A DNA stretch of 40,075 nucleotides from Lentisphaeria bacterium (GCA_017524965.1 JAFXUM010000151.1:1-40075), one strand, 5' to 3'; counted from the stretch's first letter, positions 12,979-39,025 are shown. Made by a program: numbers and translations. Notes: generated from the sequence alone by a model not told the origin.

Positions 12979-12993
12979 AGGATTTTATTTCAA

Positions 12994-13500
12994 ATGAGCA
13001 ACAACACCAATCCCGATCTCTGCCCCTGCGGATCCGGCGAACACTTCGCCGACTGCTGCGAACCCGTCATCCTCGGCGCCCGCAAGGCGAAAACTCCCGA
13101 GGAACTCATGCGTGCGCGCTACTCCGCCTACGCCACCTGCCACGTCGATTTCATCCTCGACTCCACGCACCCCGAACAGCGCGCCACCTGCGACCGCCAG
13201 GAAGTCAAGAACTGGGCGGAACAGTCCGAGTGGAACGGCATCAGCATCCTCCGCACCGAACGCGGCGGCGAGAAGGATTCCGACGGCATCGTCGAGTTCG
13301 TCGCGCACTACAAAAACCGCAACATGCAGATGGAGCACCACGAGATTTCCGAGTTCCGCCGCAGCGGCGGCGAGTGGTTCTTCTACGACGGCGCGATCGT
13401 CGGCCCGAAGCCCTACGTCCGCACCGCGCCGAAGGTCGGCCCGAACGATCCCTGCCCCTGCGGCTCCGGCAAGAAGTACAAGAAGTGCTGCGGCAAGTGA
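12994..13500 (+). CDS. YchJ-family protein with N- and C-terminal SEC-C metal-binding motifs
   Basis: 168 aa. [13 protein letters not shown] at the N-terminus and [14 protein letters not shown] at the C-terminus. Confidence 0.8.
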
Positions 13501-13573
13501 TTTCCTCGGCGCGTTTCCCGGCACGATGCAATAAAGCAGCCCCGGAAAGCGTTAATGGATCAGACTGACAAAA

Positions 13574-13623
13574 GACGTTCCGCCAAACGGTTTTTCCTGT
13601 GACGGAACGTCCTTTCCCTTTTT
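13574..13623 (+). terminator. Hairpin terminator ending the hisD...ychJ-like operon
   Basis: 9-bp stem GACGTTCCG (13574-13582) / CGGAACGTC (13603-13611) followed by CTTTCCCTTTTT. Confidence 0.5.
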
Positions 13624-13652
13624 CACGTACACGCAAATCCGAGGTCTTTCCC

Positions 13653-14846: not shown

Positions 14847-14868
14847 ACCGGCATCAGGAGGCTATCCC

Positions 14869-14958
14869 ATGATTTACGACCACATCGACAATATCGGGCT
14901 GTACCGTTCCGGCGCGGCGACGGTCCCTTCGTATCCGAATCCTCGCCCTGGAGTATGA
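14869..14958 (+). pseudogene. 29-codon remnant resembling the N-terminus of YhcH/YjgK/YiaL (DUF386) family proteins
   Basis: AGGAGG 8 nt upstream of the ATG. Peptide MIYDHIDNIGLYRS... matches the usual family start (MIxxxLxNxxxY), then diverges and stops. A terminator lies only ~70 nt further. Confidence 0.3.
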
Positions 14959-15025
14959 AAGATATGAACTGAGCCGCCGCGAAGGACCGCGGCACGCTCT
15001 CTTTTCCGGCACATCGTACCATCCG

Positions 15026-15053
15026 CGCCTCCTCGATCCGGGGAGGCGTTTTT
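15026..15053 (+). terminator. Rho-independent terminator
   Basis: CGCCTCC (15026-15032) / GGAGGCG (15042-15048) followed by TTTTT. Confidence 0.7.
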
Positions 15054-15172
15054 CATTTCATGCACGTGGCATTTCAGGAAACGCAGGACCGGGCAGGTTT
15101 TCTTTCACGCTCCGTGTTTCCTTTTTCCTTCGTCATCCCCGCGATTTCAACACAAAAAAACGTCCCGCAGCC

Positions 15173-15201
15173 TTGATTTCACGGGAAAAGAATTGTATAT
15201 T
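15173..15201 (+). promoter_or_regulatory. sigma70-type promoter of the GH43-GH51 operon
   Basis: TTGATT (15173-15178) - 17 nt (ending TG) - TATATT (15196-15201). Confidence 0.6.
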
Positions 15202-15280
15202 ATGGAAAAATCGCCAGGTCAAACCACGAACCAACGGGAAACGCGCCGTCCGCACGCCGTTTCCACACAGGAGATCGCAC

Positions 15281-17230: not shown

Positions 17231-17276
17231 CATAAGTTCGTTTTCTCCACCTCCAAGCACAACGAAAGACACACTC

Positions 17277-19994
17277 ATGAAGCTCTTCCATCGCATCTTC
17301 GCAGCAGCCGTCTTCCTCTCCGCATCGTTCGCAATCTCCGGCGCTGCGGCAGCCGACAACGCCCCCGCCGATCCGTCGCAGCAAAGCGTTTCGCGCCACT
17401 ATCGTCCACTTCCGCCCAGCCCCCGTCCCATTCAGCTTTTCGCATACGAACGCGACAACCGCCTGTACTATGCGTGGAACAACGACGGCATGGAATGGCA
17501 CGCGATCGACCACGGCTGGCTGAGCAGCGACTACGGCGCCTGGGGCGCGGAGAAGAAAATGCACGATCCGTACCTCTTCCACGACGAGGCAAACGGCATG
17601 TGGTACTGCATTTTCACGCCGAACCCGGACGATCCGGTGTTCGCGCTCACGTCCTCGCCCGATCTCGTGCACTGGCACGTGCAGAACTATTACCCCATGG
17701 AGAAAGCACCGCGCGGATACGCGCCGTTCATCTACTTTCGTTCAAACGGCGAAGAAGACAGGGCATACTACATCGAGTGGGTCGATGAAAAGGGGGTTCG
17801 CCTGAATGAAGAAGAAATCCTCTCCACGGAGGATTTCAAGGATTTTTCCTTAGTCCCCTTCCCCTTCCCGAGACGGTATCGGGAAGTCAAAGGAATCGTC
17901 AAGCTCGGCGACCGCGAATGGAAAGGCTGCATCGTGACCGTCACGAAAGCCGAGCTCGACGGCATCCTCGCCGCGAAAATCGAAGCCGACAGGAAAAGCG
18001 AACAGAACCGCGAGCGCATCACGGACCTGCCGGACAGTCTCAAGGACGTCTCCCGCACCGCCGAGATCGCCGTCGATCTGAAACGAACCAAGAACATTAG
18101 CCCGCTCCTCTGGGGCATCTTCTTCGAGGACATCAACTATTCCGCCGACGGCGGCCTGTACGCCGAACTCGTCCGCAACCGCGATTTCGAGTTCAACGAC
18201 CTCGACCGCGGCGGATGGAACGCCCTCACCGGCTGGAAAGTTTCCGACGCCATCGACCTCGACGGCTGGCACGACCTCAACGACTGGAGCGTTTCCGAAG
18301 GGGCGAAGGCAACCGTCGCGACCGACGATCCCATTCACAAAAACAATCCGCACTATCTCGTGCTGGAAGCTTTCGCCGCGCTTGTCAACGAAGGGTACCG
18401 CGGCATGGTCTTCCGCGAGGGCGACTCGTATCTTTTCAGCGTCTTCACGAAGTGTCTCGACGGAAACGAAGCCGCACTGGATGTCAGACTGCTCGACGAC
18501 CGGAACAATACCGTCGCCTCCGGCACGGTCACGGCAAAGGGCAAGGAATGGACCAAAACGGAGTTGAAGCTGACCGCGAACAAGAGCACGGACCGAGGCA
18601 AGCTGGCACTCATCAAGTCCGGTGGCAAGGTCGCGATCGACATGGTCTCGCTCTTCCCCGAAAAGACGTTCAAAGGCCGCAGGAACGGCCTCCGCGCCGA
18701 CCTCGCGCAGACGCTCGCCGACCTCAAGCCGCGTTTCGTGCGCTTCCCCGGCGGCTGCGTGGCGCACGGCAACGGCCTCGGCAACATGTACCGCTGGAAC
18801 CGCACCGTCGGCCCGCTGGAGGCGCGCGTGCCGCAGTCCAACATCTGGGGCTACCACCAGTCCGCCGGGCTCGGCTACTTCGAGTATTTCCAGTTCTGCG
18901 AGGACATCGGTGCGGAACCGCTCCCGATCCTCCCCGCCGGCGTCCCCTGCCAGAACTCCTCGCGCGGCGGCAAGGGCCAGCAGGGCGGCATCCCGATGGA
19001 CGAGATGGGCGCGTACATCCAGGAGGTGCTGGACCTGGTCGAATGGGCGAACGGTCCCGCCGACTCCAAATGGGGCAAGGTCCGCGCGGAAGCCGGACAC
19101 CCCGCGCCGTTCAACCTGAAATACATCGGCATCGGCAACGAGGACCTCATCAGCGACGTCTTCAAGGAACGCTTCACGATGATCTTCAAGGCCGTGAAGG
19201 CGAAATACCCGGAGATCACTGTCGTCGGCACCGTCGGGCCGTTCTGCGAGGGCTCCGACTACGAGGACGGCTGGGAGCTCGCGCGCAAGCTCGACATCCC
19301 GGTCGTCGACGAGCACTACTACCAGTCGCCCGGCTGGTTCCTGAACAACCAGCATTTCTACGACACCTACTTGCGCGGCGCCACCACGCGCGTCTACCTC
19401 GGCGAATATGCCAGCCACAACGGACCGCGCACCAGCACCATTGAGACCGCGCTCTCCGAGGCGATCTACATGCTCTCGCTCGAACGCAACGGCGACGTGG
19501 TGGCGATGTCCTCCTACGCCCCGCTCCTCGCGAAGGAGGGCGACACGCAGTGGAATCCCGACATGATCTACTTCAACAACACCCAGGTCAAGCCGACCAC
19601 CGGGTACTACGTCCAGAAGCTCTTCGGCAACAACGCCGGCGACAAGTACGCGCGCACCGTCGCGAACCTCCTGAACAACGACGGCCGCGCGCTCCCGGAC
19701 AACGGCGATTTCGCGCCGCTGAACAAGCGGTTCGCGTCCTCCTGCGTGATCGACACGAAGACGAACACCGCCACGGTCAAGATCGTGAACCTGCTCCCGT
19801 TCGAGGTGAAGACCACGCTCAAGCTCGACAATCTCGGCTCCGTCCCGGTGAAGGCGACGAAAACCGTCCTCTCCGGCAAGCCCGACGACGTGAACGTGCG
19901 TCCCGCCGAACCGAAGGACGTCACGCTCAGCTCCGAAAGCACGGTCACCGTCCCGGCGTTCTCCCTGACCGTCCTCAGCTTCCCCTTGAACTGA
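17277..19994 (+). CDS. GH51 alpha-L-arabinofuranosidase with ~270-aa N-terminal extra domain
   Basis: 905 aa with signal peptide. GH51 hallmarks GGLYAELVRNRDFE, FVRFPGGC, IGIGNEDL, and a C-terminal beta-sandwich. Confidence 0.85.
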   Translation: MKLFHRIFAAAVFLSASFAISGAAAADNAPADPSQQSVSRHYRPLPPSPRPIQLFAYERDNRLYYAWNNDGMEWHAIDHGWLSSDYGAWGAEKKMHDPYLFHDEANGMWYCIFTPNPDDPVFALTSSPDLVHWHVQNYYPMEKAPRGYAPFIYFRSNGEEDRAYYIEWVDEKGVRLNEEEILSTEDFKDFSLVPFPFPRRYREVKGIVKLGDREWKGCIVTVTKAELDGILAAKIEADRKSEQNRERITDLPDSLKDVSRTAEIAVDLKRTKNISPLLWGIFFEDINYSADGGLYAELVRNRDFEFNDLDRGGWNALTGWKVSDAIDLDGWHDLNDWSVSEGAKATVATDDPIHKNNPHYLVLEAFAALVNEGYRGMVFREGDSYLFSVFTKCLDGNEAALDVRLLDDRNNTVASGTVTAKGKEWTKTELKLTANKSTDRGKLALIKSGGKVAIDMVSLFPEKTFKGRRNGLRADLAQTLADLKPRFVRFPGGCVAHGNGLGNMYRWNRTVGPLEARVPQSNIWGYHQSAGLGYFEYFQFCEDIGAEPLPILPAGVPCQNSSRGGKGQQGGIPMDEMGAYIQEVLDLVEWANGPADSKWGKVRAEAGHPAPFNLKYIGIGNEDLISDVFKERFTMIFKAVKAKYPEITVVGTVGPFCEGSDYEDGWELARKLDIPVVDEHYYQSPGWFLNNQHFYDTYLRGATTRVYLGEYASHNGPRTSTIETALSEAIYMLSLERNGDVVAMSSYAPLLAKEGDTQWNPDMIYFNNTQVKPTTGYYVQKLFGNNAGDKYARTVANLLNNDGRALPDNGDFAPLNKRFASSCVIDTKTNTATVKIVNLLPFEVKTTLKLDNLGSVPVKATKTVLSGKPDDVNVRPAEPKDVTLSSESTVTVPAFSLTVLSFPLN

Positions 19995-20089
19995 CCGGTC
20001 TCCTCAACACACCACGCCGGGGATCGCGTTCGCGCGCCCGGCAGGGCAAACGCATCGCCGCATTTTCCTCACAAAGACAAAACAATCTC

Positions 20090-20118
20090 TTGAAAAATGG
20101 ATCGGGAGATGGTATATT
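20090..20118 (+). promoter_or_regulatory. sigma70-type promoter for CDS 20164..21675
   Basis: TTGAAA (20090-20095) - 17 nt - TATATT (20113-20118). Confidence 0.6.
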
Positions 20119-20163
20119 AGCTGTATCGGAACAGAATCGGAACCGCAACCGAAAGAAACGCGA

Positions 20164-21675
20164 ATGGCTCAGAACACATCGGAACAAACGAAGTCACAGC
20201 CCGCGTCCGGAGATCCCGCATCCGCCCCGGCAACCTTGTCGCCGGAGCCGGAACAGAATGCGTATTACGCGTATTTCCGGGAGGCCCCTGAACCGCTCCG
20301 GCAGCTGAAGTGGTGCGCGATCGCCCTGTATTCACTTCCCGTCTTCATGACGCTGTTCGCTTTTGTCGTCGGCTCGTATGCGCTGCTCATGATCCCGCTC
20401 GGAATCATCGCGTTCCCGGTCATCCCGGCGGTCATCGTCAGCAGGGCATTCCGGGACTTTGACGTGAGTTTCCCGCCGCCTTTGGGGGAACGCGCGGACA
20501 GCCGCGATTCCCGGCGGAACCGCCATGCGGAGATGGTCTTCGGCGCGCTCCGTGCGCTTTTGTTCATGTGGGGCAGATTCTCGCTGTACATGTTTCCTGT
20601 CATCCTCATTTTTCTCTGCGTCCTGATCTTCTCCACCACGGCTGCCTCACGGGGCACGAATTCCGGTCTTCTGCCGATCCTCGGCCTGTTTCTGGCGCTT
20701 GCCGTTTGCGGGTTTGCCTGGTGCATGCAGGAATTATGCAGACGGGCGGACACGCTGCTCATGACGCTGTTCTTCCTCCCGGCGTTCGGCGTACTCTTTC
20801 TGTTCATGTTCGTGGGCGGAACCGGGCTCTATGCTCTGGACGGCACGAGCCCGGAAAAATTTCACGGCAGTTTTCTGCCGGCCTTCTTTCCTTACCTGAT
20901 CTTCTGCGCCGGGTGCATGGTCTATTCCACGATTGTCACGCTCGACACGCTGGAACACGGCCTGAGCGGATATGCCTGGGGAATCCGGGCGCTTCAGGTC
21001 CTCGCGGTGATCTTCGGGTACATCATGGGCGCGGCAGGCATGCCGGCCTGTCTCCTCTGGACCGGGATCGGCATCTGCGGACTTCTGGTCAATTCCGTCA
21101 ACTCCACCTCGATCCTTGCACAAAGAGTCCGGCGTCTCCGCCCGCGGCGTTCCGTTCTGCATGAGCTTTTCGATCCCGCCTCGCCGTGGTCGCTGGTCCC
21201 GGTTCTCCTGCTGGAAATCGTTCTTTTCTTCCTCATAGACCGGATGTCGGGCGGATTCAAGCCAGAATCCAGAGGAGGAAAACAATTCCGCCTCGTGCGC
21301 GACGTCATCCTGCTGACCTGGGCCGCGCTCCAGTTCGCGCTCGCGCTTCAGTTCCTGCCGAGACGGCCCGGCAGCGACAGGAACGCCGCGTTCGTCGACA
21401 AACTGTCCGACATGCTGGAGTTCGACGCGTCCGCTATCGCGGAGCCGAATCCGAGGGACATGCCGCCCGGAGCGAAGCACATCCGGCTGAGTTTGTATTT
21501 CTTCCCGATTCTGCTGTGCATGATGGCCGCATATTTCACTCTGCGCGCGTACGCAAACCCAGCTCAGAAGCAGATGCCGCAAACACCGGGCATCATCCTT
21601 GTTTCCCTCGCGGCATCCATCCTTCTCCTGTTCGGAGCCGTGCTGTACGAATCATTCGGCAGCAGGCGTTCCTGA
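20164..21675 (+). CDS. Polytopic integral membrane protein, function unknown (503 aa)
   Basis: More than 10 hydrophobic helices across the ORF. Own promoter and terminators. Antisense ORFs are R/E-rich shadows. Confidence 0.7.
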   Translation: MAQNTSEQTKSQPASGDPASAPATLSPEPEQNAYYAYFREAPEPLRQLKWCAIALYSLPVFMTLFAFVVGSYALLMIPLGIIAFPVIPAVIVSRAFRDFDVSFPPPLGERADSRDSRRNRHAEMVFGALRALLFMWGRFSLYMFPVILIFLCVLIFSTTAASRGTNSGLLPILGLFLALAVCGFAWCMQELCRRADTLLMTLFFLPAFGVLFLFMFVGGTGLYALDGTSPEKFHGSFLPAFFPYLIFCAGCMVYSTIVTLDTLEHGLSGYAWGIRALQVLAVIFGYIMGAAGMPACLLWTGIGICGLLVNSVNSTSILAQRVRRLRPRRSVLHELFDPASPWSLVPVLLLEIVLFFLIDRMSGGFKPESRGGKQFRLVRDVILLTWAALQFALALQFLPRRPGSDRNAAFVDKLSDMLEFDASAIAEPNPRDMPPGAKHIRLSLYFFPILLCMMAAYFTLRAYANPAQKQMPQTPGIILVSLAASILLLFGAVLYESFGSRRS

Positions 21676-22230: not shown

Positions 22231-22692
22231 ATGGCAAACGACACGAAAACAACCTCGACATTCTGCATTCTGAGCGGGAACTGCGAGTACAAGCTCGACA
22301 GCCAGCACCGCGTCGCAGTGCCGTCGGACTGGCGCAGCCAGGCTCCGACCGGATGTTTCGTGCTCATGCCCGGGCGCGACCGCACGCTCCAGCTTTATTC
22401 GGAAGAGATCTATGATGCGCGCATCGGTTCCAAGCTGAACGCCCTTTCGCCTTCGAATCCCGCCGACCTCATGAAACTGCGTCAGCTGGGCGCCCGCACG
22501 TTCAAACTCCAGTGCGACAAACAGGGCCGCATCCAGATTCCGCAGATCCTGATGGATTTTGCGCAGCTCAAAGACACCGTCGCCTTCATCGGTTCCGGCA
22601 ACTTCGGCCAGATCATGGACGGGGCCCGCTGGCGCGCCGAGTTCGAGGCCTTCAACGAGACCGGCGACAGTTTCCTGGACGTGCTGGATTAA
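22231..22692 (+). CDS. mraZ: Transcriptional regulator MraZ
   Basis: 153 aa. Two SpoVT/AbrB-like halves (KLDSQHRVAVPSDWR and CDKQGRIQIPQILMDF). Sits directly upstream of rsmH. Confidence 0.88.
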   Translation: MANDTKTTSTFCILSGNCEYKLDSQHRVAVPSDWRSQAPTGCFVLMPGRDRTLQLYSEEIYDARIGSKLNALSPSNPADLMKLRQLGARTFKLQCDKQGRIQIPQILMDFAQLKDTVAFIGSGNFGQIMDGARWRAEFEAFNETGDSFLDVLD

Positions 22693-22704
22693 GGAGAACG
22701 CGGC

Positions 22705-23691
22705 ATGACGCAGACCATGAACATACAGGAAAAACAGCTCGAAGCCCCGAAGCACATCCCCGTGCTCCCGGAGGCCGTCTGCTCGTTCCTCGCGCCCGAA
22801 TCCCGCACCGTCCGCCGCATCATCGACGGGACAGTGGGCTACGGCGGACACAGCTCGCTGCTCCTGAAGTGCAAGCCCGGGGCGGAACTGCTCGGCCTCG
22901 ACCGCGACGAAGAGGCCCTGGCGGCGGCGCGCGAACGCCTCGCCTTCGCAGGCGAACGCGTACACCTCATGCATTCCGACTACTCCCGCATGGCCGACCG
23001 CGCGGCAGCGCTCGGCTGGGACAAGGTCGATACCATACTCCTTGACATCGGCGTATCCTCCAGACAGATCGACGACGCGGAACGCGGCTTCTCGTTCCGG
23101 TTCGCCGACGCCCCGCTGGATATGCGGATGGACCGTTCCCGCGGTCGCACCGCCGCGGACATCGTCAACACGCAATCAGAAGAGGATCTCACGACCATAT
23201 TCCGCGACTACGGTGAAATCCGGGAGGCACGCCGCCTCGCCCGCCGCATCGTCGAACTCCGCAAAACCAAACCTTTCCTCACCTGCGGGGACCTGGCGGA
23301 CGTCTGCGACGACGTCCTCGGCGGGTTCCGCCGCAAAGGCGGACGCAAAGGTCCGCCCGCTCCCACTCTCGCGTTTCAGGCACTCCGAATCGCCGTCAAC
23401 GGGGAACTCGACGAACTCCGCGACGGCCTTCAGGCGGCTGTCGATCTTCTGTCTCCCGGCGGACGCATGGCGGTCATCAGCTTCCATTCGCTGGAAGACC
23501 GCATCGTCAAGAACTTCATCCGGGACATGGCCATGAACTGCAAATGTCCGCCCGGCACCCCGGTCTGCATCTGCTCCTGGCGTGCCGTCCTGAACCCCCT
23601 GACCAAAAAGCCCGTCGAGGCCGACGAGCGCGAGCTCGCCGCCAACCCGAGGGCCGCCTGTGCCAAACTGCGCGCTGCCGAAAAACTTTAA
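22705..23691 (+). CDS. rsmH: 16S rRNA (cytosine1402-N4)-methyltransferase
   Basis: 328 aa. HIPVLPEAV, IIDGTVGYGGHS, LLDIGVSS and ISFHSLEDRIVK motifs. Confidence 0.92.
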   Translation: MTQTMNIQEKQLEAPKHIPVLPEAVCSFLAPESRTVRRIIDGTVGYGGHSSLLLKCKPGAELLGLDRDEEALAAARERLAFAGERVHLMHSDYSRMADRAAALGWDKVDTILLDIGVSSRQIDDAERGFSFRFADAPLDMRMDRSRGRTAADIVNTQSEEDLTTIFRDYGEIREARRLARRIVELRKTKPFLTCGDLADVCDDVLGGFRRKGGRKGPPAPTLAFQALRIAVNGELDELRDGLQAAVDLLSPGGRMAVISFHSLEDRIVKNFIRDMAMNCKCPPGTPVCICSWRAVLNPLTKKPVEADERELAANPRAACAKLRAAEKL

Positions 23692-23717
23692 CCATATAAC
23701 GAGAGAGCGGGACACAC

Positions 23718-24158
23718 ATGAACCAATTCACAAAAAAAACAAATCCGGCGGAAGCCGAACCCGGAACCGAACCGCAAAAGACCCACTGGGTCGCGGGCCT
23801 GATCGTCAAAATGGCGATGATGATGTTCGTCATCTTCATCGCGTTCTGCGCCCGCGTGCATCTGAACGACAAAACCGAGCAGCTTGCACGCGAGAAGGCA
23901 CGCATCCTCGAGGAAATCCGCGAGAAGCGCACCGAGATCCAGACGCTTGTCGCGAAACGCGAATCGCTGCGCTCCTGGGACAACATCAACAAGAAGATCA
24001 ACCAGTACAACCTCGCGCTCCGCGCCGTCAATCCGAGCCAGGTGCGCTACATGAAACGTTTCGAAGGCCAGGTCGCCGCACCATCTCAGTACGGCGGGGA
24101 CACGCGCGTCGCGGACACCTCCGCGGGCGCGGCGCTGACCTCCGGAGGAATCCAATAA
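23718..24158 (+). CDS. ftsL: FtsL-like cell-division protein (single TM + short coiled coil)
   Basis: 146 aa. TM LIVKMAMMMFVIFIAFCA followed by a heptad region. Conserved position between rsmH and ftsI. Confidence 0.65.
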   Translation: MNQFTKKTNPAEAEPGTEPQKTHWVAGLIVKMAMMMFVIFIAFCARVHLNDKTEQLAREKARILEEIREKRTEIQTLVAKRESLRSWDNINKKINQYNLALRAVNPSQVRYMKRFEGQVAAPSQYGGDTRVADTSAGAALTSGGIQ

Positions 24159-24197
24159 CCTGAACCCCGAACCCCGCACACAGAAAGGACGACCGAC

Positions 24198-26201
24198 ATG
24201 ACACTGTTCCGCTCCATGGCCATCCGCATGGCTCTCGTGTACATCCTGCTTATCTGCGGGTTCGGCTACGTCGCACGCGTACTCTACGACGTTCAGATCG
24301 CGCGTCACGGCGAACTCTTCGAAAAAGCGCAGCACACCTATACGACCCGGATCGAGACGCACGGCACGCGCGGCGAGATCTTCGACTTCGGCGGCTCGCT
24401 TCTCGTCGGGAACATCCCCACGATGGACATCGTCGGCGACCCGGCGAACATCTTCATCCTGAACGGCAAGGACAAGGACAAGACCGAAACGGAATGCCGC
24501 CTGATCGCGGACTTTTTCGAGAAATACTGCGAAAACGTCAGCTCCGACGAGGTCTTCCGCCGCCTCAGCCGCCGCACGTTCACGACCACGGACGCGAACG
24601 GCGAAAAGGTCGAACGCGACTGCCACTACGCCGTCATCGCGACGGGCGTCAAGTACGAGACCGCAAAGATGCTCAGGGATAAAGTGAAAGAGCTGTCCTT
24701 CCACGGCGTCTCCTTCACGAGCTCCTACCGCAGAAACTATCCGAAGGACACGATGCTGTCGAACATCCTCGGCCTCACGAACTTCTCCGCGGACAAGTTC
24801 GTCCCGGTCCAGGGCATCGAACGCTCCCTCAACGCCGCCATGACCGCCACCTCCGGCTCCATGGTCTACGAACGCGCCCGCAACGGACGGCCCGTGACCT
24901 TCACGAACAGCTCGAGCGAACCCACGCTCGACGGTTACGACATCTACCTCACCATCCGCGAGCCCCTGCAGGCCATCGTGGAGGAGGAACTCGACCATAT
25001 GTGCGAACGCGTGAAACCGCACGCCGCATGGGCGATCCTCGTCGATCCGAAGACCGGCGACGTCCTCGCCGCCGCACAGCGTCCCACGTTCAATCCGAAC
25101 GACCGCGCCACCATGACCCCGGAATCCTCCGCGAACCGCCTCTCCGAACTCGCGATCGAACCCGGCTCCATCATGAAGCCGTTCGTGGTCTCCTACGCGC
25201 TCGACCGGGGCTTCGTGACCCCGAACTCCATCGTCGACTGCGAACAGGGCGTCTGGAAGTACGCGGGCCGTCTCCTGCACGACACGCACAACGTCGGCAA
25301 GGTGTCCGTGACCGAAGTCATCAAGCAGTCCAGCAACATCGGAACGGCGAAGATCTCGGTCATGATGGGCGCGAAGAACCTCGACAACGCGCTTCGTTCC
25401 TTCGGTTTCGGACAGAAGACCGGGATCCAGCTCAAGCCCGAGACCTCCGGCATCTTCCGTCCCCTCGAAAAATGGGACTCCCTCTCCGTCTCGCGTTTCT
25501 GCATCGGACAGGGCATCGCGGTCTCCCCGCTCCAGCTCGCACGCGCCTACTGCATGATCGCGAACGGCGGCTACAAGGTCGATCTCCGCATCGTCGACCG
25601 CATCGAACGCGGCGACGACATCCGCGTCATGCCCGTGGTCAGGGAGACGAAGAGCATCTTCACGAATCCGACCACGAAAAAGATGATCACCGACATGATG
25701 ATCGGCGTCACCGAGGCCGGCGGCACCTGCACGGAAGCCGCCATCGAGGGCTTCCATGTGGCGGGCAAGACCGGAACCGCGCAGAAGGTCATCAACGGCG
25801 CCTACTCCAACCGCTACTACGCCTCCTTCGTCGGGTTCGTCCCCGCCGAGGATCCCAAGTTCGTCCTCCTCGTCACCTGCGACGATCCCACGGTCGGCAG
25901 CCGTTACGGTGGTTCCGCCTCCGGCCCGACCTTCAAGGCCATCGCCGAACGCGCGCTCAAATACATGTACGTCCAGCCGCAGATGTCCAGAGAGGAATGG
26001 CTCGCGGAACGTTCCGCCGCCCAGAAGGCCCTGCACGAACGCAAGGTCCGCGAGGACGCGCTCGTCCAGGCGAGACGCGAGGCGCGCGACCGTCAGCTGA
26101 AGGAACAGCAGGCGAAGGAATCCGCGAAGAAGACCGGGACCACCGTCGCAAGCCGCCGGACAACGTCCTCCCCCTCGAAATCCACCACGATACGACGCTG
26201 A
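24198..26201 (+). CDS. ftsI: Class B penicillin-binding protein / peptidoglycan D,D-transpeptidase FtsI, with ~80-aa charged C-terminal tail
   Basis: 667 aa. N-terminal TM. SxxK (GSIMKPF), SxN (QSSNIG) and KTG (GKTGTAQ) motifs. dcw context. Confidence 0.88.
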   Translation: MTLFRSMAIRMALVYILLICGFGYVARVLYDVQIARHGELFEKAQHTYTTRIETHGTRGEIFDFGGSLLVGNIPTMDIVGDPANIFILNGKDKDKTETECRLIADFFEKYCENVSSDEVFRRLSRRTFTTTDANGEKVERDCHYAVIATGVKYETAKMLRDKVKELSFHGVSFTSSYRRNYPKDTMLSNILGLTNFSADKFVPVQGIERSLNAAMTATSGSMVYERARNGRPVTFTNSSSEPTLDGYDIYLTIREPLQAIVEEELDHMCERVKPHAAWAILVDPKTGDVLAAAQRPTFNPNDRATMTPESSANRLSELAIEPGSIMKPFVVSYALDRGFVTPNSIVDCEQGVWKYAGRLLHDTHNVGKVSVTEVIKQSSNIGTAKISVMMGAKNLDNALRSFGFGQKTGIQLKPETSGIFRPLEKWDSLSVSRFCIGQGIAVSPLQLARAYCMIANGGYKVDLRIVDRIERGDDIRVMPVVRETKSIFTNPTTKKMITDMMIGVTEAGGTCTEAAIEGFHVAGKTGTAQKVINGAYSNRYYASFVGFVPAEDPKFVLLVTCDDPTVGSRYGGSASGPTFKAIAERALKYMYVQPQMSREEWLAERSAAQKALHERKVREDALVQARREARDRQLKEQQAKESAKKTGTTVASRRTTSSPSKSTTIRR

Positions 26202-26235
26202 TACCCTCAAAAAATCAATACAGACTTTCTCCTTG

Positions 26236-26278
26236 TACCCGCAAAAATGATTTCTCCCGTTTTTGCGGGTATTTTTTT
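26236..26278 (+). terminator. Strong Rho-independent terminator directly after ftsI
   Basis: 12-bp stem TACCCGCAAAAA (26236-26247) / TTTTTGCGGGTA (26260-26271) followed by T7. Confidence 0.85.
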
Positions 26279-26522
26279 CAAAGGACGCCTCCATCAACTG
26301 GAACGTTGGAGCGGATGATTGTTCAGCACGAGGACGAACAGGACGCGCAGGAAGAATCGAGCGAGGCGGCCTGAATGCGACCGCCGGAAATCTTCCTCAT
26401 CGGGATTTGTCCGAATGCGAAAAGCCGAAGTCAAAATTGACGGAAGCGCCTGCAAAACGCTTTATTTCCTGAAATGACCCCGTTTTTTTTCAAAAAAAAT
26501 CGCCGTTTTCGCTTTTTTCCGC

Positions 26523-26551
26523 TTGAAATAACCTCGTTCCGGCTTTATTAT
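26523..26551 (+). promoter_or_regulatory. sigma70-type promoter of hisF operon
   Basis: TTGAAA (26523-26528) - 17 nt - TATTAT (26546-26551). T8-C-A8 palindrome at 26483-26499 upstream. Confidence 0.55.
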
Positions 26552-26595
26552 ATAGTGGAAAACAAATAAACCGCAACTTTTCTTCAGGAGTTCCT

Positions 26596-27357
26596 ATGAA
26601 CAAAGTTCAAATCATGCCCTGCCTTGACATGCAGAACGGACGCGTCGTGAAGGGCGTCCATTTCATTGATATCGCCGACGCCGGCGACCCCGTCGCCTGC
26701 GCGGAAGCCTATTGCGCCGCCGGAGCCGACCAGCTCGCCCTGCTCGACATCAACGCCACGGTCGAAAACCGCGGCACGCTCCTCGACGTCGTCAAATCCG
26801 TCGCCGCGGCCGCCACCGTCCCGTTCACCGTGGGCGGCGGCATCAGCGACGAAAAGAGCGCGGAAGCCGTGCTTTCCGCGGGCGCCGACCGCATCTCCAT
26901 CAGCTCCGCGGCCTACAAGAACCGCAATCTCCTCGCCAGCCTGGTCAAAGAGTTCGGCGCCGACCGCATCACCGCGGCCATCGACGTCGACGCGAACAAG
27001 TCCATGCCGTCCGGCTACGAGGTCTACATCAACGGCGGACGCACCGCCACAGGCACCGACGCGCTCGAATTCGCCAAGTTCGTCGACGACACCGGAGTCG
27101 ACGTCATTCTCCCGACCAGCAAGGCCGGAGACGGCGCGCGCACCGGTTACGATCTCCCGCTTATCCGCACCCTCGCCCGGAACTGCCGGGCCGCCATCGT
27201 GGCCTCCGGCGGAGCCGGGACGATGGAGCATTTCTGCGAGGCAGCCGAGGCGGGCGCCTCCATCCTCCTCGCCGCTTCCGTCTTTCATTTCCACATGATC
27301 GACATCGGCGAGCTGAAAGCCTACCTCAAATCCAAAGGTCTCCAAGTAAACGCTTAA
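26596..27357 (+). CDS. hisF: Imidazole glycerol phosphate synthase cyclase subunit
   Basis: 253 aa. [32 protein letters not shown] and ASGGAG motifs. AGGAG RBS. Confidence 0.92.
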
Positions 27358-33745: not shown

Positions 33746-33773
33746 TTGACTTTAAACAGTTTTCATGTATATT
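33746..33773 (+). promoter_or_regulatory. sigma70-type promoter of the lipoprotein-secretin-secretin-marR operon
   Basis: TTGACT (33746-33751) - 16 nt (ending TG) - TATATT (33768-33773). Confidence 0.6.
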
Positions 33774-33830
33774 ATCTTTGCGACAAAACTATTTTTCACA
33801 AAAGACACTTTCCAGAAAAGAGACCACTTC

Positions 33831-34292
33831 ATGAAAAACGCCTCCCGTTTCTCCGCTCTCGCAGCCGTCCTCCTCGCGGGCGCAGTCTCCGCGTGCACGA
33901 CCATCCGTGAACTTCCGCCCGACCCCGCCGACGCCGAGATGAGCGTCGAGCAGACGGAGGAACGCGAATACTCCCGCAAGCTGCTGGAAGCCTTCCTGAA
34001 GAACGACGCGTCCGGGTTCATCGACCTGCTCTCGCCCGAGATGAAGGAGGAGTTCGGCAAGGACAAGTTCGAGCTTTCGCGCAAGGTCATCACTGAAACG
34101 CTCGGCAAGCCGGTCTCGTTCAGCTACGTCACCGCGCTCGAACACATCGCGATCACCCCGTACATCTGGAAAGTCCGTTTCGTGCTCAAGAACAAAGAGG
34201 ACAAGGAATACTACAGCGAAGCGCTGTTCCGCGTCCTAGCCGGACACGACACGCAGGGCAACGTGATCATCGTCGGCTTCAATTTCCTTTGA
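33831..34292 (+). CDS. Small lipoprotein, function unknown (153 aa)
   Basis: Start at MKNASRFSALAAVLLAGAVSAC (lipobox VSAC). The ORF-track start 33765 falls within the promoter -10. Confidence 0.7.
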   Translation: MKNASRFSALAAVLLAGAVSACTTIRELPPDPADAEMSVEQTEEREYSRKLLEAFLKNDASGFIDLLSPEMKEEFGKDKFELSRKVITETLGKPVSFSYVTALEHIAITPYIWKVRFVLKNKEDKEYYSEALFRVLAGHDTQGNVIIVGFNFL

Positions 34293-34433
34293 TCCGGACG
34301 AACGGCGTTCCCGGGATCCCCCCCCACACACAAAACACAAAACAAAACGGAACCTCGCGTTCCGGGGCCGTCCTTGTTTCTTCCGCTCATATCAACCCTC
34401 ACACATACCCTCACACTCAACCACGAAAACCAC

Positions 34434-36065
34434 ATGAACAAGACCGCAAGAACTCTCCTCTGCCTGGCAGCCGGGACGCTGTGTCTCGTCTCCCTCGCCG
34501 CGGACGACGCGTCGCAGGACGACGGCTCCGCAAGAACCATCCATCTGAAGCAGGACGACGGACAGATCCGCTTCGACAGCCGCGTGTACGAGCTGAAGAA
34601 CGTGACTTCCGAGTCCGTTCTGCCGTTCGTGAACTCCGCGATCCAGCGCTACAACCGCAGCTCCACGATCCGCCGCGTCACGGCGATCGCCCCGGACGCC
34701 AAGGATGCGATCCTCGTCTCCACGGGCAAGGATTTCCTGCCCTACGTCGACCAGATCGTCGCCGCGCTCGACCGTCCCGGCCAGAAGGGCATTCAGGGCA
34801 CCGGCGTGGCGCGCATCGCCTACACGCCGAAATACCGCGCCGCGCAGGAACTCACCGACCTGATCGACAAGACGCTCGGCACGTCCGCCGGCAAGTCCTA
34901 TGTGAACGACGAGACCAACACGATCTTCTGGCGCGACCAGACCGACGCCGCGCGCGGCACGCTCGAATTCATCGAAACCGAGCTTGACCGCCCCCTGCCC
35001 CAGGTCGCGCTCCGCCTCAACTACTACGAACTCCGCGACAGCGACCTCAAGGACTGGGGCTTCGACTATCTCGCGTGGAAGAACGGCCCCGGCGTGAACC
35101 TGCTCAACCTGAGCTACAACGCCGGCCGTCTCGCCGTCGACCAGGTCCTGGAAGACCTCCAGTTCGTCGCCACCTCCACCTGGGGCTACGGCGGATTCTT
35201 CACCGCGCCGCAGTTCGACATGAGCTTCATCCGCTGCCTCCAGCAGTCCGGCAACGCCGCCGTCACCGCGAACGTCTCCCTCACCATGGTGAACACTCCG
35301 GTCCGCTCGCTCGAAGAGTATGCGATGCTCCGCGGCGTGCAGGAATCCGCCGCCGACAAGGCCCCGTTCATCTACCGCGCCTCCATGGAGCCGGAATACC
35401 AGAACATCGCCAAGAACGTCCTCGGACGCACGTTCGTCGGCAAGAGCTACTACGAGGACGAGGACGGCAACAAGTTCTCCAATCCCCCGGCGCTCGACGT
35501 CCAGATCATCAACCCCTTCATCTGCCTCCCGCAGGAAAACGCCCCCGCCGGAGCCTACAATGAAAAATACAAAGTGACCGATTCCGCCGCCGACCTCAAC
35601 AAGGACATGGTCAAGACCGACGGCTGCGTGATGTTCGACTACTCCCTGTTCTTCAAGGACGTCGTCGAGCGCGGCAACACCGGCGCCGAGCTCAGCAACA
35701 ACGTTCTCTGCGCGGGCGCGGCCACCCTCGGACTCGGACGCGAAAAAGTCCTCACCGTCTACGAAAAGGAAAACGACGTCGAGCAGACTATCGGCCTCCC
35801 GATCCTCTGCCGCATCCCCGTCATCAAATACCTCTTCAGCACCGTCACCAGCATCAAGGAACGCACCTACGTGATCGTGACCGCCGAAGCCGTCCTGCTC
35901 CACCCCGAGGAGAAGAAAGGCATCCCGCAGACCGAAAGCGTCAACAAGGACGTGAAGCGCCGCATCGAGAATCCCTTCCGCGCCAGCGAAGACGACGCCC
36001 CGAAGGCTGTGCCCGCCGCCGAACAGCAGGCCGAAACCGAACAGAATGCCGAAAGCGAGGACTGA
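34434..36065 (+). CDS. Secretin-family outer-membrane channel protein (paralog A, Sec signal peptide)
   Basis: Start at MNKTARTLLCLAAGTLCLVSLAADDA. Two secretin-N-like modules (…ILVSTGKDFLPYVDQIVAALDRP; …NTIFWRDQTDAARGTLEFIETELDRPLPQV). C-terminal secretin signature GLPILCRIPVIKYLFS. Confidence 0.75.
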   Translation: MNKTARTLLCLAAGTLCLVSLAADDASQDDGSARTIHLKQDDGQIRFDSRVYELKNVTSESVLPFVNSAIQRYNRSSTIRRVTAIAPDAKDAILVSTGKDFLPYVDQIVAALDRPGQKGIQGTGVARIAYTPKYRAAQELTDLIDKTLGTSAGKSYVNDETNTIFWRDQTDAARGTLEFIETELDRPLPQVALRLNYYELRDSDLKDWGFDYLAWKNGPGVNLLNLSYNAGRLAVDQVLEDLQFVATSTWGYGGFFTAPQFDMSFIRCLQQSGNAAVTANVSLTMVNTPVRSLEEYAMLRGVQESAADKAPFIYRASMEPEYQNIAKNVLGRTFVGKSYYEDEDGNKFSNPPALDVQIINPFICLPQENAPAGAYNEKYKVTDSAADLNKDMVKTDGCVMFDYSLFFKDVVERGNTGAELSNNVLCAGAATLGLGREKVLTVYEKENDVEQTIGLPILCRIPVIKYLFSTVTSIKERTYVIVTAEAVLLHPEEKKGIPQTESVNKDVKRRIENPFRASEDDAPKAVPAAEQQAETEQNAESED

Positions 36066-36068
36066 TCC

Positions 36069-38090
36069 ATGAAAACCAAACTCTACAGAAACATCATCCT
36101 GACGTTCGCCGCCGGACTCCTCGCGGCTTCCTGCAACTCCGACCAGCTCCCGCAGCCCCCGCCGAACGTTTCCATCCTGGAAGGCGCGAAGGTCCCCTCC
36201 CAGATCACCGTCACTCCGCAGGCCATCCCCGGCTCCGCCAAGAGCGAACAGGGCGCCCCGACCGGCGGCTACGGCCCGTCCAACGTCCAGGCGCAGCTGA
36301 AGATCGACGTGAAGGACGGCACGAAGGAGATCACCGTCATCCGCGACAACACCGATCCGCTCGTGATCACGAAGCCCTACACGATCAAGAACGCCGACCC
36401 CTACGCGGTCCGCAGCTACCTTGAAGCCGCCGTCGGCGCGCGCAGCGTCAGCACCAGCCCCGCCCAGGCCACCGCAGTCAAGTTCGACGACGGCACCGGC
36501 GTGGTCCTCGTCTCCGCCGAGGAATACCGCTTCAGCGACAACGAGGACGGTCGCGGCATCGACAGCATCGTCGCCGCGCTCGACCGCAAGGGCCTGACCT
36601 ACTCCGGCGACGCCGGGACGCGCATCTACTTCCCGCGCGCCAGCAAGGCCGCGAACCTCCGCGACATGCTCCTGAAGGTCGGCTCCTCCGAGCTCGATCC
36701 GCAGTTCGAGATCTCCCCCAGCACGGTCCTGGTCGACGGCGAGCTGAACGCGCTCGTGGTCTGCGCCCCGGAATGGTCCTGGGAAGACATGCGCAAGCTC
36801 CTCGCGAGCTACGACCGCCCGATCCCCGAGGTCAAGATCTCCTACCGCATCATCGAGATCTACGCCGAGAACGACGACCGCATCGGCGTCGACTTCCAGA
36901 GCTGGAAGAACAACGAGGGCGTCGACCTCTTCTCCGCAGGAGCCATGATGAGCCGCAACTGGGGCACCTTCTTCACCAGCAGCGTCCAGGACACCGGCTT
37001 CAACAAGGTCTCCTACTGGAACTTCAATCCGAAGTGGAACACCCGCTACCTCGACTTCATGACCTCCATCGGCAAGGCGAAGATCCTCGCACGCGGCGAG
37101 ATCGTGGCGCAGAACCGCACCGTCTCCACCGTCCAGGTCGCCTCCGGATTCTTCTATGACCGCACGTTCTACACCGCCGGCGCGAAGACCATCGCCGAGG
37201 GCACGGGCGAGTTCGCCTACACCGATCCGAACCCGGACACCATCCTCCGCGAGGCCGTCACCAAGATCCAGCCGCTCGCCAAGATCCAGGAGTTCTACAA
37301 GGACGCGAAGACCGGCGCGATCATCCGTCCCGACGGCTACACGCTCCGCACCATGAACACCCAGACCGGCACGAACACCTACGGCGACGTCTCCGCAAAG
37401 GTCTTCGGCAACGACTCCAAGACCAGCCCGCTCGCCAAGTTCCTCACCGGCTACGTCAAGGCCGACGGCACCGTCGTCAACGGCGCCTACTACAACACCA
37501 ACTGGGACAACGCGAACGCCGCCCCCGGCGTCATCCACGGCTGGCTCCAGTACCCGATGGTCACTGACGGCTTCAAGTTCGACCTCCGCGTCACCCCGGT
37601 CGTCACCTCCAAGGCCGCCAAGATCACCTTCGACCTCGACAGCATCTCCCTGCTCGGCTGGAACGCCGACGGCTCCGCACGCATGAGCAAGTCCCAGACC
37701 GGCACGACCTTCCAGATCGGCACCGAGGCCGAGGAATTCGTGATCGGCGGCCTCAAGAAATCCGAGTCCGTCCGCAGCACCGCCGGCCTGCCCTTCCTGA
37801 AGGACATCCCCATCATCGGCCGCGCCGTCTCCACCGAGTCCGAGTCCATCAAGCAGTCCCAGCTCGTCGTCATCGCCAGGGTCGAATACTCCAACCCCGA
37901 CGACGCCGTCGGCGAGGAGATCTCCGAGGACCTCGGCAAGATCGTCAAGAGCGTCAACAAGGGCATGACCAGCCGCGTCGGCAACATGTTCTTCCAGCAG
38001 TACGGACTCGACGACGACCGCTCCGACCGCGTCGACCGTCTCGACAAGGTCGGCAACTTCATCAACGATGACTATCAGGAGATGAAGTGA
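36069..38090 (+). CDS. Secretin-family outer-membrane channel protein (paralog B, lipoprotein / liposecretin-like)
   Basis: MKTKLYRNIILTFAAGLLAASC lipobox. Secretin-N-like modules (…VVLVSAEEY…IDSIVAALDRKG; …LNALVVCAPEWSWEDMRKLLASYDRPIPEV). C-terminal signature GLPFLKDIPIIGRAV…LVVIARV. Confidence 0.75.
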   Translation: MKTKLYRNIILTFAAGLLAASCNSDQLPQPPPNVSILEGAKVPSQITVTPQAIPGSAKSEQGAPTGGYGPSNVQAQLKIDVKDGTKEITVIRDNTDPLVITKPYTIKNADPYAVRSYLEAAVGARSVSTSPAQATAVKFDDGTGVVLVSAEEYRFSDNEDGRGIDSIVAALDRKGLTYSGDAGTRIYFPRASKAANLRDMLLKVGSSELDPQFEISPSTVLVDGELNALVVCAPEWSWEDMRKLLASYDRPIPEVKISYRIIEIYAENDDRIGVDFQSWKNNEGVDLFSAGAMMSRNWGTFFTSSVQDTGFNKVSYWNFNPKWNTRYLDFMTSIGKAKILARGEIVAQNRTVSTVQVASGFFYDRTFYTAGAKTIAEGTGEFAYTDPNPDTILREAVTKIQPLAKIQEFYKDAKTGAIIRPDGYTLRTMNTQTGTNTYGDVSAKVFGNDSKTSPLAKFLTGYVKADGTVVNGAYYNTNWDNANAAPGVIHGWLQYPMVTDGFKFDLRVTPVVTSKAAKITFDLDSISLLGWNADGSARMSKSQTGTTFQIGTEAEEFVIGGLKKSESVRSTAGLPFLKDIPIIGRAVSTESESIKQSQLVVIARVEYSNPDDAVGEEISEDLGKIVKSVNKGMTSRVGNMFFQQYGLDDDRSDRVDRLDKVGNFINDDYQEMK

Positions 38091-38596
38091 TGAAGAAGAA
38101 CGGCGGCAGACAGGCGAAGCGCCCCGGAGCCGGGGCGCCGCTTCCTGAGACCTCGCCGGACCTCGAGGCGCTCAAGAAGATGGTCCGTCTCCTCGAACGC
38201 AAGCACCGCGCGTTCCTTGAGCAGGACTGGAAGGAGCACGCCTACGAGATCCAGCGCAGCCAGTTCAACCAGCTCATGATCGTCCGGTTCGCCATGCCGT
38301 GCAACCTCAGCCGCATCATGGCGGTCACCGGGCTCACCTCCGCCGGCGCGTCCCTCTTCGTCGACAAGCTCGTCCAAAGCGGATACCTCATCCGCACCGA
38401 CGACCCGAACGACCGCAGAAACGTCCGGATTTCGCTCTCCGAAAAGGGCGCGAAGTTCATCGGCGAGGTCGTCGACAGGTTCAACGCCTTCATCGAGGGC
38501 TACCTCCGGACGTGTACCCGCGAGGAGCTCGCCGTCGTGTCCCGGGCGATGGACATCATCAACAGGACGATCGACGACGGGGAGGAAGGCGCGTAA
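38090..38596 (+). CDS. MarR-family transcriptional regulator
   Basis: 168 aa. Winged-HTH region LSRIMAVTGLTSAGASLFVDKLVQSGYLIRTDDPNDRRNVRISLSEKG. The start (GTG 38087 / ATG 38090) overlaps the secretin B stop. Confidence 0.8.
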   Translation: MKKNGGRQAKRPGAGAPLPETSPDLEALKKMVRLLERKHRAFLEQDWKEHAYEIQRSQFNQLMIVRFAMPCNLSRIMAVTGLTSAGASLFVDKLVQSGYLIRTDDPNDRRNVRISLSEKGAKFIGEVVDRFNAFIEGYLRTCTREELAVVSRAMDIINRTIDDGEEGA

Positions 38597-38635
38597 TTCA
38601 AGCCCGATTCCTCCTCACGCAAGCTCAACGTCATT

Positions 38636-38672
38636 CCCGCCGCCTCTCACCCGGAGACGGCGGGATTTTTTT
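38636..38672 (+). terminator. Rho-independent terminator ending the secretin operon
   Basis: CCCGCCG (38636-38642) / CGGCGGG (38658-38664) followed by ATTTTTTT. Confidence 0.8.
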
Positions 38673-38894: not shown

Positions 38895-38923
38895 TTGAAA
38901 AATCAAATCCGCGATTGTATATT
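38895..38923 (+). promoter_or_regulatory. sigma70-type promoter of the CE15-like esterase gene
   Basis: TTGAAA (38895-38900) - 17 nt (ending TG) - TATATT (38918-38923). Phased TTTTA tracts upstream. Confidence 0.6.
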
Positions 38924-39025
38924 ATCGCTGAAAACCCGAATCAACCAAACAAGTGAGCTCAAGTTCCCCTCGCCAGGGGGCGGAAGGAACCGGCTCACGC
39001 AAACAAATCACAAGGAGTTCTCAAT

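Follow-up and report, generated by a model that had tools for sequence, protein, structure and literature searches.

Secretins are generally regarded as homo-oligomeric gates encoded by one gene per machine. The 40,075-nucleotide (nt) stretch of DNA analysed here, referred to at its full length as the window (Lentisphaeria bacterium, GCA_017524965.1 JAFXUM010000151.1:1-40075), contains two diverged secretin genes next to each other in one operon (33746-38672), which raises the question whether their products serve as two gates or as one. It consists of four co-oriented genes, coding for a small lipoprotein, secretin A, secretin B, and a MarR-type regulator, which are enclosed by a sigma-70-like promoter on one side and a strong terminator on the other. 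An earlier inspection, in the following called the sequence-only reading, had offered two explanations: a hetero-oligomeric or stacked two-secretin channel with the lipidated paralog and/or the small lipoprotein as pilot, or two alternative gates serving a machinery encoded elsewhere, in both cases under MarR-type autoregulation. Our comparison of related loci points to a self-contained, repressor-controlled, two-subunit secretin-type outer-membrane channel that appears to be peculiar to Lentisphaerota, and we consider it moderately probable that A and B act in one complex under MarR control.

Secretins A and B are inherited as a pair

A scan of one genome per species of the Genome Taxonomy Database (GTDB) gave 164 relatives, of which 80 loci were fetched, and a profile search for the A/B family gave 105 clusters (50% identity) at E ≤ 1e-30. 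A metagenome scan seeded with divergent members provided 79 more loci, and in total 163 loci (designated L followed by a number) were compared. Hundreds of B homologs with 60-73% identity were found, all of them from Lentisphaeria or Victivallaceae where named, and the A orthologs, which are 58-65% identical across Lentisphaeria, had the same distribution. As the NCBI records label both A and B "hypothetical", the family is currently unannotated in metagenome-assembled genomes (MAGs) from rumen and gut. In a full-text literature search of incomplete coverage, neither the A/B family nor any other paired or heteromeric secretins were found to be described.

In the 80 fetched loci, A adjoined B wherever the contig permitted. 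The complete set of 163 loci contained 139 A-then-B pairs, distributed over 135 loci and with a gap of -23 to +42 nt between the two genes, and no unpaired A or B was found in this set away from a contig end. The pairs span identities down to ~25% within each family, and the paralogs A and B share ~22-24% identity. The orthogroup of the window, termed the core clade, comprises 76 pairs including that of the window and was compared with 57 divergent pairs. The identity matrices of A and B were correlated with r = 0.977 (0.975 in the 57 divergent pairs alone), compared to at most 0.13 after shuffling of the partner labels, and the clusterings of A and B agreed with an adjusted Rand index of 0.91-0.99. 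Three loci, L094 (5201-12007), L095 (5201-12007), and L112 (8457-15325), carry A-B-A-B arrays in which A1/A2 and B1/B2 are equally diverged (~50%), a pattern pointing to a tandem duplication that included both genes of the pair. More than one pair per genome or contig is also found in other arrangements: in L139 a cassette of the window type and a divergent pair are located 7 kb apart on one contig, and one Victivallaceae MAG (locus-tag prefix PHI35) holds both a core B and a divergent B. The universal adjacency, the correlated distances, and the arrays argue that the pair is old, present in multiple copies, and inherited and duplicated as a unit.

Because the two genes are always tightly packed in the order A-B and neither is passed on or duplicated without the other, A and B most likely belong to one complex, possibly a mixed ring or a pair of coaxial rings, instead of acting as independent gates. 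The two-secretin channel of the sequence-only reading thereby gains comparative support from 139 pairs that show no exception away from contig ends, were co-duplicated, and evolved in step. The pIV proteins of f1 and IKe can form mixed multimers and thus provide a precedent for two secretins sharing a ring; the mixed pIV rings are artificial, whereas A and B are a fixed paralog pair.

Membership of A and B in the secretin family

Secretin A (34434-36065, plus strand; 543 amino acids [aa]) has an ordinary signal peptide (LVSLA/ADD), two N-type domains, a diverged secretin domain, and an acidic C-terminal tail. Secretin B (36069-38090, plus strand; 673 aa) has the lipobox LLAASC, N-type domains, a secretin domain with an insertion of ~100 aa, and a conserved helical C-terminal tail. 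In Pfam searches, B scored 51.5 bits with the secretin family (PF00263; cut-off, 27.5 bits) over profile positions 59-163 of 169 and 27.5 bits with Secretin_N (PF03958), just below the cut-off of 28.2 bits. A remained below both cut-offs, with 20.3 bits for PF00263, covering the last ~40 profile positions only, and 21.8 bits for PF03958. Precomputed annotations assign PF00263 to some A orthologs and PF03958 to many A and B orthologs. The N0 domain (PF21305) was not detected in A or B in Pfam and NCBIfam scans, and according to NCBIfam neither protein is a GspD, PilQ, SctC, MshL, or HofQ equivalog.

As the Pfam scores of A are below the cut-off, its assignment as a secretin is based on its alignment to B and on other homology and fold searches. 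Alignment of the A and B profiles with hhalign gave a probability of 98.6% (E = 6.8e-16, 456 columns, 24% identity) and extended from end to end including the barrel region, and BLASTP of A versus B gave an E value of 4e-13. The PHROG family for M13 protein IV (pIV) assembly matched A at E = 3.7e-12 and was the only PHROG family matching A and B. In Foldseek searches, 38 matches for A and 36 for B were obtained at E ≤ 0.001, all of them secretins (best E values, 6.5e-12 and 8.6e-14, respectively) and including GspD, InvG, PilQ, pIV, BfpB, and RcpA with ~390-670 columns aligned; the Foldseek probability was 1.00 but the TM-scores, obtained with low-confidence monomer models, were 0.2-0.5. These AlphaFold2 monomers were predicted from alignments of 33 (A) and 37 (B) sequences with a mean pLDDT (predicted local distance difference test) of 58 and 49, respectively, and are usable for family-level fold matching, not for judging barrel completeness or interfaces. 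Since both are low-confidence monomers, a full barrel is putative for A as well as for B. The beta-alpha-beta-beta-alpha pattern is visible in both models. A profile search of the PDB with B orthologs retrieved chains of GspD, PilQ, pIV, and RcpA, and the best PDB sequence match for A was pIV (7ofh). The sequence-only reading was therefore correct in assigning both large open reading frames (ORFs) to the secretin family, B according to Pfam and A through homology and fold only. The motifs LDRPG/LDRKG, DRPLPQV/DRPIPEV, and GLPxLxxIPxI, which it had listed, are present in the translations, and B, for which it had noted large insertions, has ~100 extra residues in the barrel region of the A/B alignment.

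The weaker secretin signature of A could mean that only B forms a membrane pore and that A has a role outside the pore, such as that of an assembly scaffold or of a periplasmic ring or adaptor replacing the missing N0/GspC-type coupling. A is shorter than B, has neither a lipid anchor nor the conserved C-terminal helical tail of B, and its Pfam secretin match is restricted to the end of the profile and below the cut-off; the lack of a detectable N0 domain in both proteins would also fit. We nevertheless regard such a division of labor as unlikely, since the A-B alignment includes the barrel region, the A model has ~8 long beta-strands after residue 190, Foldseek aligns A to whole secretin chains, and the barrel-region motifs are equally conserved in A and B orthologs.

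With M13 protein IV assembly as the sole PHROG family matched by A and B, an origin of the operon as a remnant of a filamentous-phage (pIV-type) export module was also considered. This origin was rejected as highly improbable: phage genes were found neither in the window nor in the flanks, where the neighbours are housekeeping genes, and the cassette belongs to a widespread chromosomal family conserved in >150 species genomes, with flanks differing by clade and with congruent A and B distances. Unlike pIV, A and B are chromosomal, vertically inherited, and multi-copy, without phage genes.

Among the known secretins, GspD/PulD ranked first among the PDB sequence matches of B and among the fold matches of A as well as B, and it shares with them a Sec signal and N-type ring domains that precede a C-terminal secretin domain. 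A and B differ from GspD in their low scores with TIGR02517 (29 bits for A and 52 bits for B; cut-off, 351 bits), in lacking N0, in their location outside a gsp operon, in their constant occurrence as two paralogs, and in the conserved ~100-aa insertion of B. The verrucomicrobial PilQ (Amuc_1098 family) is a secretin from the same superphylum, with which B shows a weak NCBIfam match over its last ~65 residues (20 bits; cut-off, 750 bits). Amuc_1098 is a single ~900-aa protein with an N-terminal tetratricopeptide repeat (TPR) region (PMC4960237).

Absence of linked machinery and relation to the canonical type II secretion system

No family of type II secretion systems (T2SS), of type IV pili (T4P), or of Tad systems was found among the other ORFs of the window, and a prepilin motif was not found in its six frames. 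As only 1.4 kb of the window is located 3' of the operon, 10 kb downstream was also checked in two relatives (93% identical in secretin B), where no T2SS, T4P, Tad, or other type IV filament genes were present. The statement of the sequence-only reading that the window has no ATPase, platform, pseudopilin, or prepilin peptidase gene was thus confirmed and extends to the downstream regions of these relatives. Across the 163 loci, no neighbours other than the MarR and lipoprotein families were recurrent. A GspF homolog was found near 1 of the 163 loci (L049), and genes of T2SS, T3SS, T4P, Tad, or phage-export clusters did not recur next to the pair. As far as linked genes for an ATPase, a platform, or pilins are concerned, the term orphan operon is justified; rather than an oddity of one genome, however, the operon represents one orthogroup of a Lentisphaerota-wide A/B family. 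GspE-type ATPase genes, considered as possible linked partners, occur within 10 kb in only ~6 of the 163 loci, which was judged coincidental; in L029, thyX, a TPR-LysM gene, and rdgC intervene between them and the cassette. Prepilin-like N_methyl/DUF1559 proteins are encoded by 36 ORFs, which are scattered over the 2.25 Mb of locus sequence without a constant placement with respect to the pair.

Canonical GspD with an N0 domain is widespread in Lentisphaeria and encoded in a gspD-E-F-G...J operon, as found in L164/L165 (6629-21343). In L049, a T2SS-type block (12036-20525) located 3.5 kb downstream of a MarR-lipoprotein-A-B cassette codes for GspE, GspF, a canonical GspD with N0, Secretin_N, and Secretin (127 bits) domains, and a protein that weakly matches PilN, and L048 contains homologs of the first two genes of this block only (PilN-like protein and GspD), at the same position. 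A and B align to the canonical Lentisphaeria GspD over the last ~65 residues only (E = 0.012 for A and 8e-5 for B), and judged by these alignments they are ancient paralogs that are closer to each other than either is to the GspD family. A function of the A/B pair as default T2SS gate was rejected, since an apparently complete T2SS operon that includes a GspD gene exists separately. For the PilQ-type secretin of Akkermansia, a homolog in Lentisphaera araneosa has been reported (PMC4960237). The T2SS is thus already gated and the same probably holds for type IV pili, and the A/B pairs are a third class of secretin. As the T2SS has its own GspD, any inner-membrane partner of A and B, too, is probably not the canonical T2SS.

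These results bear on the possibility that A and B are two independent homo-oligomeric secretins that are co-expressed as alternative gates for machines encoded elsewhere, for example type IV filament systems handling N_methyl/DUF1559 proteins. Such a function would conform to the homo-oligomeric nature of the known secretins, prepilin-like genes are scattered across the related loci, GspE-type ATPases are present in these genomes, and with no linked platform any partner must act in trans. Independent gates would, however, be expected to become separated, lost, or duplicated alone, which was observed in none of the 139 pairs down to ~25% identity, and two obvious machines already have a gate in GspD and the PilQ-type homolog (PMC4960237). 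We therefore consider independent gates rather unlikely. For the T2SS, this second explanation of the sequence-only reading is weakened further by L049, in which the system's own GspD is encoded on the contig of the cassette.

Lipoprotein, lipid anchor of B, and MarR regulator

The first gene of the operon (33831-34292, plus strand) encodes the small lipoprotein of 153 aa (MKNASRFSALAAVLLAGAVSAC; lipobox GAVSAC), a candidate accessory or pilotin-like factor, and the last gene (38090-38596, plus strand) a MarR-family winged-helix regulator of 168 aa, starting at ATG 38090 or alternatively at GTG 38087. The regulator matched PF01047 with 33.5 bits (cut-off, 24.6 bits) and PF12802 with 28.3 bits (cut-off, 27 bits). 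MarR was found in the locus of 69 of the 76 core pairs but of only ~1 of the 57 divergent pairs, and a hidden Markov model of the lipoprotein family gave corresponding values of 68 of 76, window included, versus ~1 of 57. Beside 53 of the 57 divergent pairs a small lipoprotein is absent. The sole divergent, MarR-less pair with a lipoprotein homolog is that of L114, where the gene (12019-12444) is placed downstream of B rather than upstream of A.

The signal peptide of B ends in a lipobox cysteine (LLAAS-C), as the sequence-only reading had stated, and B is therefore predicted to be lipidated as a liposecretin. A lipobox is present on most core-clade B proteins, with the cysteine missing from a few members (P0020, P0040), whereas outside the core clade only 2 regular-expression matches were obtained and the divergent B proteins have an ordinary signal peptide. 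The lipoprotein, the lipid anchor of B, and MarR are hence orthogroup-specific additions and not features of the pair itself.

Within the 75 related core-clade loci, the lipoprotein gene lies upstream of A in 54 and the MarR gene downstream of B in 55, and the complete order lipoprotein-A-B-MarR is found in 53. The gap between B and MarR is -4 to +9 nt in 33 of 43 loci with MarR after B (near-identical set excluded). In one subclade (L049, L055, L068, L072, L080, L082) MarR is the first gene, so that the position of a regulator gene at the 3' end of a secretin gene, which had been described as unusual, is the usual one in this orthogroup without being invariable.

Liposecretins such as HxcQ, BfpB, TcpC, and R64 PilN carry an N-terminal lipobox and pilot themselves. 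B shares the N-terminal lipobox with them, and BfpB-BfpG (9u5s) is among the fold matches of A; HxcQ, BfpB, TcpC, and PilN are single secretins in the operon of their own system, whereas the lipidation signal of B is confined to one orthogroup. The lipoprotein resembles the pilotins PulS/OutS, AspS, MxiM/YscW, and PilF/PilW/Tgl in its small size, in the pilotin-type placement of its gene next to a secretin gene, and in its lipobox cysteine, which is invariant in 28 of 28 orthologs and followed by a conserved T-V-I-R-E-L-P. It differs from them in having no similarity to any Pfam family or PDB chain; searches of Pfam, NCBIfam, PHROG, and PDB sequences gave no significant match and hence no known pilotin family, and a pilotin role is a candidate function. 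The analogies thus reach only as far as the presence of a lipobox and of a small adjacent lipoprotein.

Control region and candidate MarR operator

The operon of the window is preceded by a sigma-70-type promoter (33746-33773, plus strand) with the -35 hexamer TTGACT (33746-33751), a 16-nt spacer, and the -10 hexamer TATATT (33768-33773), matching the consensus at 10 of 12 positions. A consensus scan detected four promoter-like sites of this quality in 7 kb, with 1.0 expected. The extended -10 element (TATATTATCTTT) and an operator-like or 5'-leader region, containing a degenerate copy of the palindrome described below and A-rich repeats, extend from 33768 to 33830 (plus strand). The 12-mer TATATTATCTTT is unique in the window (0 expected) and occurs at the same position in related loci. 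The leader of the window keeps A-rich repeats with a period of ~16 nt (CACAAAAGACACTTTC / CAGAAAAGAGACCACT), and an inverted repeat, AAACAGTTTT / AAAACTATTT (33754-33763 / 33785-33794), brackets the -10 region.

In ~35 diverged core loci, a promoter cTTGACA-N17-TATATT is found at the same position before the first cassette gene, within the larger pattern cTTGACA-N17-TATATTATCTTTc-N3-GAAAGAT(A/T)TTT that precedes the lipoprotein or MarR gene alike. The family element is a 7-3-7 (17-bp) palindrome, ATCTTTC-N3-GAAAGAT, which abuts the -10 region, is perfect in L023 and L025, and is often trailed by one to three further GAAAGAT-type elements ~16 nt apart. With up to 2 mismatches, the palindrome was found in 23 of 61 non-redundant MarR-type cassettes compared to 0 of 52 MarR-less pairs. 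The half-site occurred at about background frequency in 1.1 Mb, apart from the promoter and a coding-driven site in A. This palindrome looks like an autoregulatory MarR operator and is our candidate for it. In having a MarR domain above the Pfam cut-off, a regulator inside its presumed target operon, and a palindrome overlapping the core promoter, the cassette resembles marRAB-type autoregulated operons; it differs from them in the usual position of the regulator at the end of the operon, where it adjoins a secretin gene closely, and in that the targets are outer-membrane channel proteins and not efflux or catabolic genes.

As the repeats are located downstream of the -10 region and hence transcribed, they might instead form an RNA leader element controlling translation or stability, with MarR regulating something else, an alternative that concerns regulation only. 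A period of ~16 nt is odd for the operator of a dimeric winged-helix protein, and the absence of an Rfam match is compatible with a new element. On the other hand, the first element and the 3' flank of the -10 region together form a DNA palindrome, perfect in two loci as stated above, which occurs only where the cassette has MarR and keeps its position when MarR is the first gene. An RNA leader of this kind is in our view quite improbable.

Two further sites were rejected. A GAAAGAT-like cluster inside A is the reverse strand of conserved K-Y-L-F codons and thus coding-driven. An exact copy of TATATTATCTTT in L063 (18560-18640, minus strand), considered as a sign of a further regulon member, precedes an unannotated 241-aa ORF, is not accompanied by the GAAAGAT palindrome, and probably represents no more than a local -10 consensus. 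The same conclusion is suggested for part of the TATATTATCTTT motif by an extended -10 of similar sequence (38895) that precedes the esterase gene located downstream of the operon.

Proposed mechanism and significance

The mechanism that we propose for a single A-B complex builds on the gene structure, the family membership, the universal pairing and co-evolution of A and B, the orthogroup-specific additions, the promoter with its palindrome, and the missing linked ATPase and platform. An old duplication of a highly diverged secretin would have given rise to A and B, which would be produced from one transcript in close succession, exported by the Sec system, and combined in one outer-membrane assembly. 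Lipidated B of this orthogroup could reach the outer membrane by the lipoprotein pathway and thus pilot itself, and the small lipoprotein might act as an assembly or pilotin-like helper. MarR would bind to the palindrome abutting the -10 region and keep all genes of the operon, its own included, silent up to its release by a signal.

Several points weigh against this reading. The contact between A and B is deduced from genomics alone, the monomer models being poor, and strict adjacency and co-inheritance would also be observed for two channels under common regulation without physical contact. The complete barrel of A is presumed, as A falls below the Pfam gathering thresholds, and the lipoprotein is dissimilar to every known pilotin. 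The palindrome copy of the window (ATCTTTG-CGA-CAAAACT, 33774-33790) is degenerate, with 4 mismatches in 14 positions, and escapes detection at up to 3 mismatches; for the genome of the window, MarR control is therefore deduced from orthology and position. Being part of the transcribed leader, the repeats could act as RNA. For the autoregulation suggested by the sequence-only reading, a candidate operator is now available, which MarR-bearing cassettes conserve and MarR-less pairs lack, whereas the copy in the window itself is degenerate.

The individual parts of the operon are of known kinds, but an obligate pair of paralogs, the multiplication of this pair, and a MarR switch dedicated to an outer-membrane channel are unfamiliar. 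Two old paralogs that never separated and were duplicated only together would, if the proposal is true, be the first natural case for a two-subunit secretin and a tractable system for studying how ring symmetry, gating, and membrane insertion are divided between subunits. The pair also bears on the question, relevant to Planctomycetes, Verrucomicrobia, and Chlamydiae, how polymer degraders that have hundreds of prepilin-like proteins transport large molecules through the outer membrane. Promoter and palindrome, both of them conserved, offer a direct experimental handle. A more far-reaching idea, to which we give little credence, is that A and B are the first natural hetero-oligomeric secretins forming regulated, stand-alone giant outer-membrane pores for macromolecule traffic without a dedicated ATPase or platform. 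Polysaccharide fragments or the numerous prepilin-like surface proteins of the phylum might then be among the traffic, each genome would have several paralogous pores adapted to different cargo, and the pore of the window would be opened by a signal sensed by MarR.

Operon structure and surroundings

The assignment of the four genes to one unit between promoter and terminator by the sequence-only reading agrees with the coordinates, the consensus scan, and RNA folding. The stop codon of A and the ATG of B are separated by 3 nt (TGA tcc ATG), and the MarR ATG overlaps the B stop codon by 1 nt, the shared A of TGATG, so that the regulator gene is indeed packed against the end of B. The intrinsic terminator (38635-38672, plus strand) consists of a GC-rich 12-bp stem with one bulge (38635-38665) followed by U7; its RNA fold has an energy of -21.3 kcal/mol (z = -2.36; 1 of 200 shuffles as good). 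Because of the bulge it was missed by a pattern scan, and it was recovered by folding. The GC content at third codon positions (GC3) of the four ORFs is 0.78-0.95, like that of other genes in the window, and gene calls on 94%-identical contigs gave the same four products with 153, 544, 672, and 168 aa.

The host of the window is an uncultured rumen member of the Lentisphaerota, order Victivallales, and secretin B is 98% identical to the product of a gene on ONQZ01000011 from "uncultured Lentisphaerae bacterium RUG555". Outside the operon, the window is ordinary chromosome with housekeeping neighbours. It encodes a Ser/Thr kinase, tRNA-Arg (the sole match in an Rfam search of the window), HisD and HisC, Cmk, GH43 and arabinofuranosidase enzymes, and also carries mraZ-rsmH-PBP3, hisF, and genes for a Sel1-repeat protein, a TolB-like protein, a Mur-ligase-family protein, and a TP_methylase-family methyltransferase. 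At 22231-27357, the order mraZ-rsmH-ORF-PBP3, with an ORF of 152 aa without Pfam match, is followed directly by hisF and the Sel1-repeat and TolB-like genes instead of mur genes, and this order is repeated in L001-L003. ORFs of 603, 196, and 503 aa at 5811-8209 (minus strand) and 20164-21675 (plus strand) have a coding-like GC3 and belong to no Pfam family. From 9000 to 40075, the strand bearing nearly all genes has a persistently negative GC skew and a positive AT skew, and the cumulative GC skew over the window is -3.5.

A glucuronoyl-esterase-like gene is located 3' of the operon from 39026 onward. In the region preceding it (38895-39025), it has its own promoter-like site with the same extended -10 as the operon (TGTATATTATC), and its leader contains a strong stem-loop (38953-38998; -30.7 kcal/mol, z = -3.7) without an Rfam match. 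Many independent assemblies of close relatives (L001-L011 and L084) end at one place, ~0.6-1.2 kb past MarR and inside the downstream gene, which points to a repetitive or variable sequence at this site. The contigs of L012 and L031 continue past this shared break and diverge from each other farther downstream. In L012, whose secretin B is 93% identical to that of the window, a second MarR gene and an AcrB/AcrA-type efflux pair (15092-19835, minus strand) are encoded on the strand opposite to the cassette, 2.6 kb downstream of it.

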